In this document: piece by piece, positions 10,314-16,388 of the stretch
Layout: each line of letters opens with the position of its first letter
How positions within the stretch are numbered: position 1 is the first letter of the stretch
UHGV virus genome: UHGV-0140091
Strand: one strand, 5' to 3'
Length of the DNA stretch: 35,268 nt
From: a virus
Made by a program: the position numbers and the translations under genes
The notes under the pieces: generated by a model
What the model was told of the DNA's origin: nothing
Database searches by the model: none
What the model saw: only the letters and a program-made list of their open reading frames with translations

Positions 10314-10767
10314 AGAAGTAGTGCAAAGAGCAATGCTTGACAATTCTACTAAAGATGAGATGTACACAGAAATTTGTGATAAGTTGAACTGCTCAAGACA
10401 TGCTGCTAAGGTTCTTGTACATTGTTTTATTTGGGAATGCTCAGAAGCCTATATGAAACACGTAGCTTTTGAGAGTTCTCATTTACTCGGTGATGTAAAA
10501 ATAGGTGTAGCACTAAAAGAGCCTGAGATGAAAACAGTACCTAAGGTTGGTAATGTGTATAAATTAAAAAATTTTATTACAGGCGAGATTGTTGCAGAAG
10601 GTGAAGTGCAACAGGTTTATCATGATGGTAAATATCTGTTTAAGATATTCGAGTATGATAGTCGTTACAGACACTTATGTGGTATTACATTTTTAGTTTC
10701 AGAGGATGACCTCATCAAGAACAATAGTAATAAATTCGCAGTACCAGAATATCAAGTTTTACGATAA
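10303..10767 (+). CDS. hypothetical protein
   Basis: 154-aa ORF. Confidence 0.6.
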   Translation: MKIKEVVQRAMLDNSTKDEMYTEICDKLNCSRHAAKVLVHCFIWECSEAYMKHVAFESSHLLGDVKIGVALKEPEMKTVPKVGNVYKLKNFITGEIVAEGEVQQVYHDGKYLFKIFEYDSRYRHLCGITFLVSEDDLIKNNSNKFAVPEYQVLR

Positions 10768-10780
10768 TGGTGTGATATCT

Positions 10781-11329
10781 ATGGAAAAAGATAACTTAAA
10801 AGAAGTTGAAGGTAACTACCTAGTACTTGACTGGAGTGATGTTCGAGAAGCACTCTCCGAAGAAAATCTTGACTGGTTCGAACAAATTATCTTTGCAGTA
10901 CGGCATAATAGAGAAGTTGAAAATGGTAAAGAGCCACTTGAAGGAATCTTTGTAGAAAGGTCTTATCCGTTCTATGAAGACACTTTGCAGAAAGTTAAGA
11001 TGTACTTTAGGCAGAAGAACCGTAAAGTGGTCACTATGGTATCTCTTGGTGGACAGAGTATGTCTGTGATGGAAGATATCAATCCTAAGAGACCGAGTAA
11101 AGGTGTTTGTATAAAAATCACAGGTCATGAAGAGTATATCTCAGCAAGTGATTTTAGTGTATTCTGTAATGGTTCTGCTGTCTTTAATGGGTTTCACTAT
11201 GATATCCGAGTGTATCCAATCAAGGGAGATGATATCATGATGCAGGTATTTGATAACAACAACGGATTCACTCATTTTTATCAGACAACCAAGTCATCAT
11301 TAAAAACAGTTCTTGAAACACTGATTTAA
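10781..11329 (+). CDS. hypothetical protein
   Basis: Tracked ORF 10706-11329 overlaps the previous gene by 62 nt; the internal ATG at 10781, just after the upstream stop, is the more likely start. Confidence 0.55.
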   Translation: MEKDNLKEVEGNYLVLDWSDVREALSEENLDWFEQIIFAVRHNREVENGKEPLEGIFVERSYPFYEDTLQKVKMYFRQKNRKVVTMVSLGGQSMSVMEDINPKRPSKGVCIKITGHEEYISASDFSVFCNGSAVFNGFHYDIRVYPIKGDDIMMQVFDNNNGFTHFYQTTKSSLKTVLETLI

Positions 11330-11340
11330 AATATCTTAAT

Positions 11341-11367
11341 AGCCTCCTTAATTGGGGGCTTTTTATT
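11341..11367 (+). terminator. rho-independent terminator closing the plus-strand block
   Basis: AGCCTCC...GGGGGCT hairpin followed by TTTTTATT. Confidence 0.65.
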
Positions 11368-11375
11368 GAGTAAAA

Positions 11376-12923
11376 TTTACGAAATTTATATTTTTTATAA
11401 AATTTTATCGGTTGTCCCAACCTCTGGGTCACCATCATATGTGAACAAAATATCTATCCTTCTTAACAACCTTTTTAATCTTACTCTCTATATAGTTATA
11501 TAGTACTATATAGTATCTTAGTAACTACCTAGTGGTCTTAATAGCCCCTCTGTATAATCCTTCTAACAAGCCCTCTAACAAGCCTTCTTAACAACCTATA
11601 CAATCACCTTAACCATCTCTCTATACACTCTTAGAAGCTCCTATACACCTCTTAATCTCTATGTCAGCTATGACACTCTCTATAGGTGTTCACTAGGTGC
11701 TACTAAGCCTCTATATAGACTGTTTTAACAAACTTAACAGGAATATCTTTACAGGCCTTATCTCACAAGGTCTAACACGGTACTAACAAGGTATCTTATA
11801 AGCCTGTTATCACCTGTATTTTAGAAAGACTGTATAGGTAATTATTCAGATTTTTAAAATTTTTATAAAATAGGACTATCAAGTCATTTTTTAGGGTCTT
11901 TGAAGGAACTGAAAAATATCTGTAGAAGATGTATATCTGCTTGGTAGCCCTTAACAGCTCCCTTACAAGTACTTTGCAAAATTTTAAAATATCCTTAACA
12001 ATCTCTTAACAGTTCTCACATCTTCTTAACAACTCTTCAAAGGTCTTAACAGATTCTTAACAGAACTAACAAGGACGTAACAGTTTCTTAACAGTTGATA
12101 CATAGTCTTTACAGAATCTTAACAGATGACTAACAAGAGCTAACAAGTTAATTTTTAAGAGTTATTTTGTTAAGATAATTAACAAGTTCCTAACAAGTGT
12201 TTAATCTTTTTAACAAGCTGTTAACATGGTCACTACTCTTTTCTTATCGTTCCCTTTGCTTCTTAGTGATTCTTTAAACATACCTCTTAAAAGCCCTCTA
12301 TAGCTCCTTGTAAGCTCTTTTAAGTCTCTTCCTAGTATTTACCCCCCAACTGTACAGATAGCTCTTTATAGGGCTTTACAGGAGCTTTAAAGGCTATGTC
12401 AAAGACTCTTACAAGGCTTTTACGTGGTCTTAACAGAGATTTAACAAGGGGCTAACAAGTTGCTAACAAGTCTCTAACAAGCATAACTATGTAGGGATTG
12501 TTAAGAAATTGTTAAGAAAATGTTAAGGGGGCTAGCATTTACGTAACTTTTAAGCAACTTTGAAGTAACTTTATAGCCCCTATAACATACTTTTAAGACA
12601 CTAACAAGCCCTTTTTAGATATTCACAAGATAGCTAATGAGATGATAAAGCTTATAACCTTATAAGATTCTTTTAAGCCTCTATAAAGCCCTGTAAAGAG
12701 CTTTTTAAGGTTGGTTAATGCAATCCCTTAAGTTAGGTTGATAAGGCTGTTATAGAGCTTTATAGAGCGTTTAAATGGGCCATCCCCTTTCTGGGGTTAT
12801 TGGCTTTTATTTAAGTTGATTTGATAAAAGGTTATAGAGTAGACTATAGAGTTATTGCTTTTAAGGTCTGATAAGATTCTGGAAAGGTGAGGGAAAGGGA
12901 TTGTATAAGGATTCAATAGACGT
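11376..12923. repeat. ORF-free island of short phased repeats
   Basis: ~1.55 kb with no ORF of 60 aa or more. Dozens of CTTAACA(A/G) / CTAACAAG heptamers, many 10-12 bp apart, plus a second family CT(C/T)TATAG / CTTTACAG. Bounded by convergent terminators. Confidence 0.6.
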
Positions 12924-12949
12924 AAAAAAGCCCCTTTAAATAGGGGCTG
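12924..12949 (-). terminator. rho-independent terminator closing the minus-strand block
   Basis: Minus strand AGCCCCT-ATTTAA-AGGGGCT hairpin followed by TTTTTT; a second hairpin GGGGCT-ATTT-AGCCCC lies at 12961-12976. Confidence 0.65.
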
Positions 12950-12986: not shown

Positions 12987-13235
12987 TTAGTTATAATCTT
13001 GTTTGTTGTAGTACAGGGAGACGATTTTTTCTCCCCAATAGTGATAAGTATAACCATCCTTGAGAACTTCTTGTTTTGTTTCCTCCCAGAACTCATCCGA
13101 AGGATTATAATCTTTGATGGTCTGACTGATAAGACCTTTCACCATTACAAAGGCGTTATCAGTACCTGCAATGTCAAATTTAACATCCAGAGAGGAAAAA
13201 CCGAACTCGTTAACAGTAGCGCGGATAGTTGCCAT
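12987..13235 (-). CDS. hypothetical small protein
   Basis: 82-aa ORF directly preceded by the conserved repeat with AGGAGA ribosome-binding site. Confidence 0.6.
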   Translation of the reverse strand: MATIRATVNEFGFSSLDVKFDIAGTDNAFVMVKGLISQTIKDYNPSDEFWEETKQEVLKDGYTYHYWGEKIVSLYYNKQDYN

Positions 13236-13301
13236 TTTTGAATCTCCTAGTTTAAGGGTTTTATTTAGTGGGGAGGTTATCGCCTCCCGTTGATTAGTAA
13301 T
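13236..13301 (-). repeat. conserved intergenic repeat (PeSL-like), hairpin variant 1
   Basis: TTTTGAATCTCCTAGTTTAAGG core plus hairpin GGGAGG-TTATCG-CCTCCC and GTTGATT. Confidence 0.7.
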
Positions 13302-13565
13302 TTACTGCATGTTGGCGTATGTTGCAAGCCTTTTTTCGTTGTATTTTGTCAGAATCTCACAAGATAAAACATCATATTTTGTAACCGCTTTGCCTTTGTC
13401 GAGGTCAAAGAATCCGAACGCTTTACCGTCTTTGAATCCGACAACTTCGTAAGATTCTTTAATGATTTCACCATTGAACAAATCACTTTCGATGCGGTGG
13501 AATAATGCTACATCCTCTTTGTCGGTTGCAATTTGTAAAAGTGTGGTCAGTTCGACGTGTTCCAT
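13302..13565 (-). CDS. hypothetical small protein
   Basis: 87-aa ORF preceded by the conserved repeat. Confidence 0.6.
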   Translation of the reverse strand: MEHVELTTLLQIATDKEDVALFHRIESDLFNGEIIKESYEVVGFKDGKAFGFFDLDKGKAVTKYDVLSCEILTKYNEKRLATYANMQ

Positions 13566-13630
13566 TTTGAATCTCCAGTTTAGGATTTTATTTAGTGGGG
13601 AAGGTCATTCCCTCCCCGTTGATTGACAAT
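13566..13630 (-). repeat. conserved intergenic repeat (PeSL-like), variant 1
   Basis: Same core; hairpin GGGGAAGG-TCATT-CCCTCCCC; near-identical to the copies at 14724 and 18468. Confidence 0.7.
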
Positions 13631-14161
13631 TTACAGATTTTTGATTGTCTCGTCAATATCTTTTTCAATATCTTTTAAAGTTTTTTCTAAGTTCTTGATA
13701 TTGAACGTTAAACCTTCACCGAGAGTCTTATGGTGACCATTAGGTCTATGTTCATAGAGTTCGATTTCTTCCACATTGGATAAGTTTACCATCTCACCAT
13801 TTGCAGCATAGGCTATTGACACAGTATTTTCAGGTGCGTCGTAAAACTTGTTTAAGGACTTGATAGAACGTTCATAAGCCATTTTATAGCTGTTTAAAAG
13901 GTTTTTAACGTGGCTGTGAACGTTTTTACACTCATCTAAGTAAAGACCTAAAAACATCGGGAGAAGTTCCGCGACAGCTTGCATAAAGTGAGAGACTACA
14001 ACGGTTGCAACATTACGACGATGAACGTAATAAGCCCCGTTTTCTGATTTGGTAATGGTTGCAAAGTGTACCCCATTACAACGAAATTCATAGGTATCTT
14101 TAACAGGTTTAGACATTACATTATTTGAACGAATATAGTTGATAGCTTTGAACTTGTTCAT
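13631..14161 (-). CDS. hypothetical protein
   Basis: 176-aa ORF preceded by the conserved repeat. Confidence 0.6.
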   Translation of the reverse strand: MNKFKAINYIRSNNVMSKPVKDTYEFRCNGVHFATITKSENGAYYVHRRNVATVVVSHFMQAVAELLPMFLGLYLDECKNVHSHVKNLLNSYKMAYERSIKSLNKFYDAPENTVSIAYAANGEMVNLSNVEEIELYEHRPNGHHKTLGEGLTFNIKNLEKTLKDIEKDIDETIKNL

Positions 14162-14233
14162 TTTAGAATCTCCTAGTTTAAGGACTTTACTTAGTAGGGA
14201 GGTTATCCCTCCCGTTGATTAGTAATTTACTTG
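14162..14233 (-). repeat. conserved intergenic repeat (PeSL-like), variant 1
   Basis: Core plus hairpin GGGAGG-TTATC-CCTCCC. Confidence 0.7.
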
Positions 14234-14381
14234 TTTTGATAGCTGATTGCAAGCAATTTTTTAAGTTTATCTATAAAGAATCTTTTAAGTAAATCCCTTT
14301 TAGATAAACCCCCTCGAACAAATGTACTATTGTCAAGGGGTATCGTCAAGTAATTTTTTAAAGTTTTTTGTAAGTTATTGA

Positions 14382-14723
14382 TTAACTGATGAATATTTTT
14401 TCAGGTTTTACATAGCTGATACGCTGATTTTTTAGTAGGCTATCCCATAACAAGGCGGCAATGTGCCCATATCCGGCCTCACGCAGCCCCTTCATCGTTT
14501 CAACTCGACTCTCAAAACGATTTGCGTAATACTCGCTATTAAGTGTCGTTTTGTTCCCTTCGTTATCTGTATGGATGATTTGCATCACTTGAAAGGGGCT
14601 GACATCCTCGCCTTTGTTCCACTGCTCAAAGTATTTTAGGCACTGCATAGGTGACATCTTATCACTTACTTGAGTTGACCAAGATGAATCTTCTTTATCG
14701 GTAATTACAGTTACATAAGCCAT
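14382..14723 (-). CDS. hypothetical protein
   Basis: 113-aa ORF preceded by the conserved repeat. Confidence 0.6.
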   Translation of the reverse strand: MAYVTVITDKEDSSWSTQVSDKMSPMQCLKYFEQWNKGEDVSPFQVMQIIHTDNEGNKTTLNSEYYANRFESRVETMKGLREAGYGHIAALLWDSLLKNQRISYVKPEKIFIS

Positions 14724-14800
14724 TTTAGAATCTCCTAGTTTAAGGACTTTATTTAGTGGGGAAGGTCATTCCCTCCCCGTTGATTGACAATTTACAGACT
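14724..14800 (-). repeat. conserved intergenic repeat (PeSL-like), variant 1
   Basis: Core plus hairpin GGGGAAGGTCATTCCCTCCCC. Confidence 0.7.
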
Positions 14801-14814
14801 TTTATCAGGCTTGT

Positions 14815-15048
14815 CTAGTCTTTTTCAATGATAATTTCATATTGACCATCGACACTGTCAAAATAGACGCCGTCTTCATCTTCTGTCTTAAAGTAGCATT
14901 GAATATCATCACTGGCGGGATAGTCTTGTCTTGCTATCTGGCAAACTTGAATAGCATTTTCTTTACTCCCTGTAAACTCCTCAAGCCCTTTAAAATCACA
15001 TGAATGACCATTACAAATGGAAAGGATGAGATAAATGGTTGTAAGCAT
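14815..15048 (-). CDS. small hypothetical protein with hydrophobic N-terminus (possible signal peptide)
   Basis: 77 aa starting MLTTIYLILSICNGHSC; GAGGG ribosome-binding site; preceded by a different hairpin (GGCCC-TTTAC-GGGCC) rather than the conserved repeat. Confidence 0.5.
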   Translation of the reverse strand: MLTTIYLILSICNGHSCDFKGLEEFTGSKENAIQVCQIARQDYPASDDIQCYFKTEDEDGVYFDSVDGQYEIIIEKD

Positions 15049-15111
15049 GATTTAAGCCCTCTAAATGGCCCTTTACGGGCCTTAAGTTGGAAGTTGGTGT
15101 CTTTGTACTGA

Positions 15112-15675
15112 TTAACCTAAAAAGTCTTTTAAATTGCGTTCTGTGATGTTTGCCGTGATTTTATCCAGCAGGTCACAAAACACGGAACTATCACCGCTAT
15201 TCTGTACAATTTTCGCCATACTTAACAAATCATCGTCAATATAGCCTAAATTGCGGTTAGTTGCATCTGGTACAAAGAAAGGCGCATACATCGCACTAAA
15301 TTTCGTCGAGTGAAGGCCAATAATCCAATCTTTATCAAAGTGTCCGGTAAAGCTGGCGATATCGCTCATGTTGTCACAAGAATAATCATCCTCTAGCTCT
15401 TCCTCTGGGATATCCATCTCAATGACAATTACGTCCTGCGTTTCCATTTGGAAAGCTGCCGTAATAAGCCCAGATTCTAAAGCGTTTTGAATGCAGCGTT
15501 CACGAATGTAAGAATCTTCCTCATCTTCCAGACATTCCGTTTTGATAATCTTGTTCATTGGGTAAACGTAGAAACAATCATCCATGTATGAGCAGTTCCA
15601 GATTCCTTCCGGCTTGTCGCCACCATTCAGCAGGTTTACAAAGTTTTTGAGGGTAGTTCCGTGATAGCATTTCAT
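15112..15675 (-). CDS. hypothetical acidic protein
   Basis: 187-aa ORF preceded by the conserved repeat. Confidence 0.6.
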   Translation of the reverse strand: MKCYHGTTLKNFVNLLNGGDKPEGIWNCSYMDDCFYVYPMNKIIKTECLEDEEDSYIRERCIQNALESGLITAAFQMETQDVIVIEMDIPEEELEDDYSCDNMSDIASFTGHFDKDWIIGLHSTKFSAMYAPFFVPDATNRNLGYIDDDLLSMAKIVQNSGDSSVFCDLLDKITANITERNLKDFLG

Positions 15676-15764
15676 TTTTGAATCTCCAGTTTAGGATTTA
15701 GTGGTAAAGCTCTTTATCTGGGGCTTACTTTATCGAACTATAAGCCCCTTGTAAAGTACTTTAT
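15676..15764 (-). repeat. conserved intergenic repeat (PeSL-like), variant 2
   Basis: Core plus AGCTCTTTATCTGGGGCTTA...TAAGCCCCTTGTAAAGTACTTTATT. On the minus strand TTTACA-17 nt-TAAAGT overlaps the hairpin. Confidence 0.7.
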
Positions 15765-16010
15765 TTAACTTTTTTTTGAGAAAATTAGTTTAACTGCAAC
15801 TGTAGGAATCTCGTCAGCGGTTGTAACCAGCATTACTTTTTGAGTGACCAACTTATAACCGTTCTTTGCAGCGTATGCGGTAAAACGGTTGACATTGTAA
15901 CTATAAGTTTTTGGTGTGTTGTCTGGCATGTGGTAAAGAAAAGGTTTACCCAAGTTTTCTTCTTGTGTCAATAGTCGGCAGGTATCAGGGATATTGAAAT
16001 AGTTCATCAT
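15765..16010 (-). CDS. hypothetical small protein
   Basis: 81-aa ORF preceded by the conserved repeat. Confidence 0.55.
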   Translation of the reverse strand: MMNYFNIPDTCRLLTQEENLGKPFLYHMPDNTPKTYSYNVNRFTAYAAKNGYKLVTQKVMLVTTADEIPTVAVKLIFSKKS

Positions 16011-16101
16011 TTTTTAATCTCCTAGTTTAAGGACTGTGTAAAGCTCTTTATCTGGGGCTTAAGATATCAGCTTTTAAGCCCCTTGTAAAGTACTTTATTA
16101 C
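16011..16101 (-). repeat. conserved intergenic repeat (PeSL-like), variant 2
   Basis: Variant-2 copy with hairpin GGGGCTTAA-GATATCAGCTTT-TAAGCCCC. Confidence 0.7.
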
Positions 16102-16299
16102 TTAATTTTTGACAACTTTTAAAACTGCAAGATAACCTAAGCAATAAGAATCACCGAAGAGAGTTCTACCCATGAAAGAATCCTCTTTGATATCCTTTGC
16201 AGTGACAGTTTTTTCTACGCCGTGGGAAAGGACTACATCACCAACTTTGATATCTTTGATGTGTGTTGTTTCAATGGTTAAGCCGTTAATAATAGCCAT
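16102..16299 (-). CDS. hypothetical small protein
   Basis: 65-aa ORF preceded by the conserved repeat. Confidence 0.5.
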   Translation of the reverse strand: MAIINGLTIETTHIKDIKVGDVVLSHGVEKTVTAKDIKEDSFMGRTLFGDSYCLGYLAVLKVVKN

Positions 16300-16370
16300 T
16301 TTAGAATCTCCTAGTTTAAGGACTTTATTTAGTAGGGAGGTTATTGCCTCCCCGTTGATGTGTAATTTAA
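16300..16370 (-). repeat. conserved intergenic repeat (PeSL-like), variant 1
   Basis: Core plus hairpin GGGAGG-TTATTG-CCTCCCC. Confidence 0.7.
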
Positions 16371-16388
16371 TCTATCTAAAAATCAGTG

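Follow-up and report, generated by a model that had tools for sequence, protein, structure and literature searches.

We analyzed a stretch of 35,268 nucleotides of the virus genome UHGV-0140091 (hereafter the window), in which an island at positions 11376-12923 lacks long open reading frames (ORFs), is filled with short phased repeats and very probably holds the terminus of a phage genome with its direct terminal repeat (DTR). No ORF of at least 60 codons was found on either strand between 11329 and 12978, in agreement with an earlier reading of this DNA made from the sequence alone (the sequence-only reading). The last gene of the plus-strand block (10706-11329) lies on one side of the island and the last gene of the minus-strand block (12987-13235) on the other. 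That reading had also placed convergent terminators at both edges, and terminator-like hairpins were indeed found there (Table 1); KhF2, wV8 and Mordin carry a terminator annotation at the position homologous to the plus-strand hairpin. Gene transcription on either side of the island runs toward the genome ends, which accounts for the convergence of the terminators.

The island matched 256 phage records, nearly all of them Felixounavirus and allies, 197 at full length with 60-94% identity. By its sequence, the window comes from a Felixounavirus, i.e., a Felix O1-like myovirus (Ounavirinae). In most of the matching records, the island lies in mid-record and is unannotated or covered by tiny "hypothetical proteins".

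Genome ends of relatives mapped onto the island

The positions of the ends were obtained from relatives whose records hold both copies of the repeat. Terminal repeats of 581 bp are annotated at both ends of the Pr103Blw record (MW481326), for which DTR packaging with repeats of this length was reported using PhageTerm (PMC8303462). The genes adjoining the ends of Pr103Blw are homologues of the two genes that border the island, and its left and right ends were mapped by BLAST to window positions 12532 and 11943, respectively. Exact duplicated ends were also found in E9 (580 bp), Ro111lw (613 bp; MH571750) and Mooglevirus HP1 (570 bp; OK539913), so that the 590 bp of the window stand beside repeats of 570, 580, 581 and 613 bp. 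In the literature, a 613-bp DTR was described for Ro111lw (PMC6454146), DTR packaging was reported for the phage set of E9 (PMC11737134) and Felix O1-like TerL was assigned to short-DTR packaging (PMC11984208). All four phages, which represent independent records from two genera, start with 5'-GCCCCCTTAACA and finish with GTTAAGGGCTACC-3'; their ends fall between 12532 and 12533 (left) and between 11942 and 11943 (right) of the window. The records D4 and SPJ41 have ends at window position 12532 as well. One repeat copy lies between the homologues of the end-adjacent genes in the window and in more than 190 records. That is, the relatives show an exact repeat at both ends, non-permuted ends and a single copy in collapsed assemblies, as expected of a T7-type DTR.

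Since the duplicated ends of the relatives map to these two positions, we regard the island as a concatemer junction, and there is little doubt in our view that it represents the genome terminus with its DTR. The end positions themselves were shown for the relatives and are placed on the window by homology; the short DTRs of Felixounavirus, Mooglevirus and Kolesnikvirus occupy the homologous locus at 77-94% identity, with the same flanking genes and terminal sequences. Relative to the window, the virion DNA reads as the reverse complement. A packaging site had been one of the candidate roles listed in the sequence-only reading, along with a replication origin, a partition-like site, a decoy and small RNAs, and it fits, as the island is a junction with a DTR and both terminase cut sites; the identity of the island as a terminus with a DTR had been missed.

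The DTR itself is already known in the genus through PhageTerm lengths and a few GenBank annotations. The records and papers on Pr103Blw, Ro111lw and HP1 give the repeat length only, and the window holds one collapsed copy. No published account of the internal arrays, cut boxes or flank arrays was found in the searched literature, nor was a transcriptome for the genus; the array architecture appears not to have been described before. The terminus region of Felixounavirus also occurs at 91% identity at 135343-137102 of GU169904 (Staphylococcus phage SA1), a record that is probably chimeric or contaminated.

Both DTR boundaries lie in conserved boxes, 3-5 bp outside an inward-pointing (G)CCC(CC)TTAACA unit. 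This unit faces inward from either virion end because the three units next to the left end are inverted relative to the main arrays. Beyond the boundaries, the 12-mer TTTTTATAAAAT of AT-rich block 1 has a second copy at 11860-11871 and no other in the whole window; it was considered as a phage-wide promoter element and rejected, being confined to its two copies in the island.

Table 1. Features of the island and its edges in window coordinates; virion ends are placed by homology, and a slash within a sequence marks the cut.
Feature	Position	Strand	Remark
Intrinsic terminator closing the plus-strand gene block	11341-11360	+	7-bp stem with 5 G-C pairs, T-run
AT-rich block 1, holds TTTTTATAAAAT at 11392-11403	11370-11410		Repeat family; 12-mer
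Flank A	11376-11942		Unique DNA just inside the left terminal repeat in the virion
Flank A array, a mixture of CTCTATAG-type units with C(T)TAACAAG units (period ~11.6 bp locally)	11450-11830	+	
AT-rich block 2	11838-11880		TAAAATTTTTATAAAATAG at 11855-11873 shared without change by 15 phages from three genera
Right-end cut box TGTATATCTGCTT/GGTAGCCCT	11930-11951		Invariant in 15/15; virion right end
Direct terminal repeat, 590 bp, one collapsed copy	11943-12532	-	Homologous duplicated ends in Pr103Blw, E9, Ro111lw and HP1
DTR array 1, ~24 TAACA-type units in one orientation, effective period 10.3 bp	11949-12230	+	
DTR array 2, CTTTATAG/CTTTACAG units that pass gradually into five units of the CTAACAAG type at a spacing of exactly 11 bp	12360-12482	+	
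Invariant box AAGCATAACTATGTAG, at a distance of 38-53 bp from the left end of the virion DNA	12479-12494		15-phage alignment
Three inverted units (TGTTAAG x3 on the plus strand)	12498-12527	-	
Left-end cut box GGGGGC/TAGCATTTACGTAA	12527-12546		Nearly invariant; virion left end
Flank B	12533-12923		Unique DNA just before the right terminal repeat in the virion
Flank B array, near-palindromic CTnTAWAG / ACGTAACTTTn units	12533-12800		
Weak terminator-like hairpin within flank B	12782-12797	+	Hairpin
Intrinsic terminator closing the minus-strand gene block	12929-12948	-	Hairpin; terminator annotated in Mordin

Repeat units, their phasing and their conservation

We next describe the repeats that fill the island. 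CTTAACAR had 15 exact copies in the island and 22 in the whole window, where 5.4 +/- 2.2 were obtained by chance in shuffles; 11 of the 13 copies of CTAACAAG lay inside the island, against a chance value of 2.25. TAACA cores were found 31 times on the plus strand of the island and 7 times on the minus strand (2.3 expected from the rest of the window). An 11-nt weight matrix derived by expectation maximization recovered 54 non-overlapping units in the island with the consensus tCTTAACAAGc. The more than 30 heptamer copies counted in the sequence-only reading are a fair figure for a loose motif, whereas exact matches to its two consensus strings number 26. A second motif family, which had also been pointed out, is real: near-palindromic CTnTAWAG-type units predominate in the flanks, whereas TAACA-type units (plus/minus strand) number 23/5 in the DTR, 8/0 in flank A and 1/1 in flank B.

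The spacing of the units was compared with random placement and with shuffled sequence. Gaps of 9-12 bp accounted for 16 of the 30 successive TAACA intervals (2.3 +/- 1.4 under random placement), and this excess persisted inside the dense zones (P = 0.0003 and 0.0006). Base autocorrelation exceeded that of dinucleotide shuffles with maxima at lag 11 (z = 13.1), lags 21-22 (z = 5.5) and lags 31-32 (z = 3-4), so that the 10-12-bp spacing seen in the sequence-only reading was borne out. The periodic zone extended over ~11450-12800, and no other 300-bp stretch in the 35-kb window exceeded the mean by more than 3 standard deviations. However, the phasing was local, comprising runs of 3-10 units, and the effective periods of the sub-arrays were 10.3, 11.25 and 11.6 bp. 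A single coherent lattice over 1.3 kb was rejected because the periodogram had several peaks between 10.1 and 11.9 bp and the sub-arrays differed; the idea that the units lie on one face of the helix holds within short runs only. Under a wedge model of the Bolshoy/Trifonov type, the arrays were no more curved than the rest of the window (end-to-end/contour ratio 0.949 vs 0.954); therefore, static bending does not explain the phasing. Mild curvature under this model was limited to the AT blocks and the left cut region.

Conservation was assessed in an alignment of 15 phages of Felixounavirus, Mooglevirus and Suspvirus and in a comparison of 16 junctions that included Erwinia phage Hena2 (Kolesnikvirus). 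The lag-11 signal (0.36-0.41) and 21-33 TAACA cores on one strand were kept in all 16 junctions; that is, the array layout was maintained in four Ounavirinae genera. In the divergent genera, motif-core positions were conserved at 0.80-0.86 and spacers at 0.63-0.70. Indels longer than 2 nt clustered at 11, 12, 21-22, 24, 32, 44 and 55 nt, i.e., near multiples of ~11 bp, indicating that units are gained and lost whole. In flank B near ~12555, the copy number differed among phages in steps of 11, 22, 44 and 55 bp. Only ~85 bp of the Hena2 junction still aligned to that of the window; its homologous DTR has forward TTAACA-like units first and then TGTTAAG units, and its flanks carry 11-bp arrays of other motifs, CTTCTAAG and CTTCTCAG. 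By homology, the Hena2 record (OM522317.2) starts at the left DTR boundary or at most 1 nt from it and holds one copy of a ~436-bp repeat, whose right boundary would lie near position 436, at ...GCGGCCACT/AAGTAGATATACA; the sequence as deposited lacks the second DTR copy.

The gain and loss of whole units, the different copy numbers in close relatives and the merely local phase coherence could also result from a largely neutral satellite, in which slippage and out-of-register annealing of the terminal repeats generate 11-bp units and only the cut boxes are functional. However, the motif and its layout persist in four genera at no more than 75% identity, including the Erwinia phages with their 85 aligned bp, and the motif cores are more conserved than the spacers. 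In addition, the strand orientation is strict (31 vs 7) and the length of the island is held at 1.44-1.74 kb across the 16 junctions. We therefore consider that a neutral satellite is quite improbable.

Real short ORFs, whose codons might explain the repeats, were looked for in the island and rejected as their cause; 12 of the 13 ORFs of at least 20 amino acids were intact in no more than 9 of 15 relatives. The exception was a 26-codon ORF at 11929-12009 on the plus strand (MYICLVALNSSLTSTLQNFKISLTIS), which was open in 15/15 relatives and spans the cut site. It has no Shine-Dalgarno sequence, its start varies between ATG and GTG and it contains blocks of non-synonymous change; together with its position over the cut site, these properties led us to reject it as a gene. 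It is probably open only because the underlying DNA is conserved.

Possible roles of the arrays

The explanation that we favor overall, with a probability of about 0.6, is a DTR terminus in which the arrays act as binding sites that position two terminase cuts. For its functional part taken separately, namely that the arrays serve terminus recognition or packaging, we put the chance somewhat below even. We assume that the units would be bound by a packaging-recognition protein, either the terminase small subunit or an accessory factor, which would oligomerize on runs of sites one helical turn apart and thereby mark the junction in replicating concatemers. The bound protein would place the terminase nuclease at the two cut boxes. 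Opposite strands would then be cut at two points with 590 bp between them, and fill-in or strand-displacement synthesis would follow, as in the Watson scheme for T7, so that each packaged genome would end up with a separate copy of the repeat. The occurrence of one motif family inside the repeat and the other outside may allow the machinery to distinguish the DTR from the flanks. T7-like genes for replication are present in the genus and encode a DNA polymerase, a primase/helicase, an exonuclease and a ligase.

Several points weigh against this explanation. The units have no known binder, and in Bas63 the annotation contains no small terminase subunit, while the large subunit lies ~70 kb from the terminus. 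The ten ORFs nearest the island have no Pfam or otherwise recognizable domain and matched only PHROGs of unknown function; we considered these genes as candidate binders and set them aside for this reason. The sites extend over 1.3 kb, which far exceeds the recognition sites of lambda cosB, P1 pac and SPP1 pac, and their phase is coherent only locally. A nick motif shared by both cuts, TGCTW^G, would have supported symmetric nicking; it is kept in Felixounavirus, not in Mooglevirus or Suspvirus, and we dropped it as evidence. The termini of this phage are themselves transferred from relatives at the identity given above. Finally, headful pac packaging was reported for Felixounavirus SEP1 (PMC13431587), in conflict with the DTR reports (PMC8303462, PMC6454146, PMC11737134); the identical exact ends in four records favor a DTR over the headful mode.

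We also considered a bolder version, which we think unlikely. The ~1.35-kb two-motif array would be a "terminus organizer", on which an Ounavirinae DNA-binding protein polymerizes over more than 50 helically spaced sites; the DTR boundaries would be read from this protein coat and not from a single pac or cos site. The same coat could act on both incoming ends, in protection or in entry control.

Direct repeats at about one helical turn, accompanied by conserved AT-rich blocks (those of Table 1 and one at ~11975-11990), would likewise be found if the island were a replication origin, in which case a phage initiator would use the units as iterons and unwinding would take place at the AT-rich blocks. 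This pattern is not specific to origins. T7 has the promoters phiOL and phiOR near its ends, which act as secondary origins. However, no DnaA, IHF or Fis consensus sites were found in the island, no initiator-like gene was present among the ten neighboring ORFs and the arrays span 1.3 kb with two motif families, unlike compact iteron origins. The change in GC skew at the island is explained by convergent transcription. An origin is improbable on these grounds, and it may coexist with a terminus function. Direct repeats at about one helical turn that bind oligomerizing proteins are also known from lambda ori, P1 incA and R1 parC (11-bp repeats). The island resembles such iterons and centromeres in its spacing; it differs in being 5-10 times larger, in its location at the genome ends and in having no DnaA boxes and no adjacent Rep or Par gene among the ten nearest ORFs. 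A partition-like site had been among the proposals of the sequence-only reading. It found no support, as no partition ATPase, adaptor or other par-like gene occurs among these ORFs, and the phage is virulent.

TAACA arrays are present at both virion ends because they lie inside the DTR, and their units point inward at each. After ejection, the arrays at the incoming ends may thus be bound by a protein of the phage or of the host, which would protect the ends from RecBCD or pause or pace DNA entry; the first-step-transfer stop of T5 is the comparison for the latter. Bas63 was stated to lack a RecBCD inhibitor (bioRxiv 10.1101/2024.10.10.617714). However, no Chi-like or known host-factor motif was found in the island, and a role in end handling leaves unexplained both the different motif in the flanks outside the DTR and the position of the cut boxes within the arrays. 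Such a role seems to us improbable as well.

Transcription of the region between the terminators could further yield non-coding RNA, be it one long transcript whose repeats act as a protein sponge or several clustered small RNAs, the latter having been suggested in the sequence-only reading. Weak sigma-70-like matches occur, e.g., CTTACA-17-TAAAAT at 11962-11990 with a conserved TAAAAT element, a terminator-like hairpin lies on the plus strand in flank B and T7 has an annotated leftward E. coli promoter within its own array. However, the promoter-like matches did not exceed those in shuffles (12 vs 8.3 +/- 3.0), and no Rfam family was matched, the best hits (E = 0.45 and 0.66) being far under the gathering scores. 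The folding z-scores were only -2.3 and -1.6, and this marginal excess over shuffles arises from base pairing between array 1 and the three inverted units. The DTR boundaries would also cut through the putative transcription unit. We regard an RNA function as very improbable.

Comparison with known termini and significance

The ends of T7 were examined directly from the T7 sequence. Its 160-bp DTR is followed by ~14 (C)CTAAAG units in one orientation at 175-357 with a period of 13 bp (autocorrelation 0.54 at lag 13), and further copies occur within the repeat and before the right repeat. These arrays were reportedly called SRL and SRR by Dunn and Studier in 1983. Both phages have a DTR and precise ends, and in both a 7-8-nt motif is repeated in a single orientation in an array that directly adjoins the DTR. 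However, the period is 13 bp in T7 and 10-12 bp here, the array covers ~0.2 kb there and ~1.35 kb here and the motifs are unrelated (CCTAAAG vs CTTAACAAG or CTnTAWAG). Furthermore, here the densest array lies inside the repeat and two motif families separate the DTR from the flanks, and transcription of the adjoining genes runs toward the ends on either side, whereas the early promoters of T7 read inward. The T7 array is an analogue of the island arrays, not a homologue.

An ATCTG(C/T)T heptamer stands immediately outside a DTR boundary in both phages (11936-11942 here and 161-167 in T7). In the window, ATCTGCT is followed by one T and then by the cut, reading toward the repeat; in T7, CCCT/ATCTGTT reads away from it. 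The T7 heptamer ATCTGTT is the RNA-polymerase pause signal needed for junction processing. As the orientation is opposite, the likeness is probably due to chance.

Short repeats on both sides of a terminase cleavage site are also known from the P1 pac hexamers and from SPP1 pacL/pacR, which are bound by the small terminase. The island shares with them the short motifs on both sides of the cleavage site and a spacing related to the helical repeat. P1 and SPP1 use headful packaging with permuted ends and have fewer than 10 motifs over 100-250 bp, whereas the island has over 50 units and its two cuts are fixed, at a distance of 590 bp from each other. The imprecise cuts and permuted genomes of a headful pac site were not seen in the relatives, whose ends are exact and identical.

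Several observations concern the remainder of the window. The ORF called mechanically at 10706-11329 has 207 amino acids, and its homologue is annotated with 549 nt (182 amino acids) in Pr103Blw, wV8 and Bas63; translation of the gene therefore probably begins at an internal ATG. Repeated intergenic cassettes separate the small minus-strand genes near the terminus (13216-18545). They include seven copies of a conserved leader (reverse complement AACCCTTAAACTAGGAGATTCnAAAATG), G+C hairpin modules and an 84-nt family with copies at 15683, 16017, 17626 and 18006. The cassettes probably represent promoter, terminator and ribosome-binding units that recur through an early-gene region. A cluster of nine tRNAs (Ile, Met, Lys, Asp, Tyr, Asn, Met, Glu and Pro) occupies 329-1681 on the minus strand. 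GATC has no site in the 35-kb window, against 98.6 +/- 8.7 in dinucleotide-preserving shuffles, which suggests strong selection against Dam/MboI-type recognition sites.

The repeat architecture, which is conserved across the subfamily, appears to be the novel part of these results; DTR termini as such are already known. The island stands in mid-record in more than 190 deposited genomes of Felix O1-like phages, therapeutic and diagnostic ones included, and is unannotated there or covered by spurious "hypothetical proteins" of 30-45 codons. The conserved ends provide a sequence rule for orienting and completing these genomes, i.e., to start at GCCCCCTTAACA, to end at GGGCTACC and to add the second DTR copy. 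In the construction of Felix O1-type vectors, the island should be kept intact or deliberately exploited. To our knowledge, T7 and T3 are the only DTR phages for which it is understood in detail how the junction is recognized and how two distant cuts are placed, and we know of no role assigned to the heptamer arrays beside their repeats. The Ounavirinae arrays offer a much larger, comparably organized and evolutionarily trackable system with invariant cut boxes. If the "terminus organizer" were true, this mode of terminus definition would have no described counterpart among DTR phages and could account for the arrays of T7 as well.

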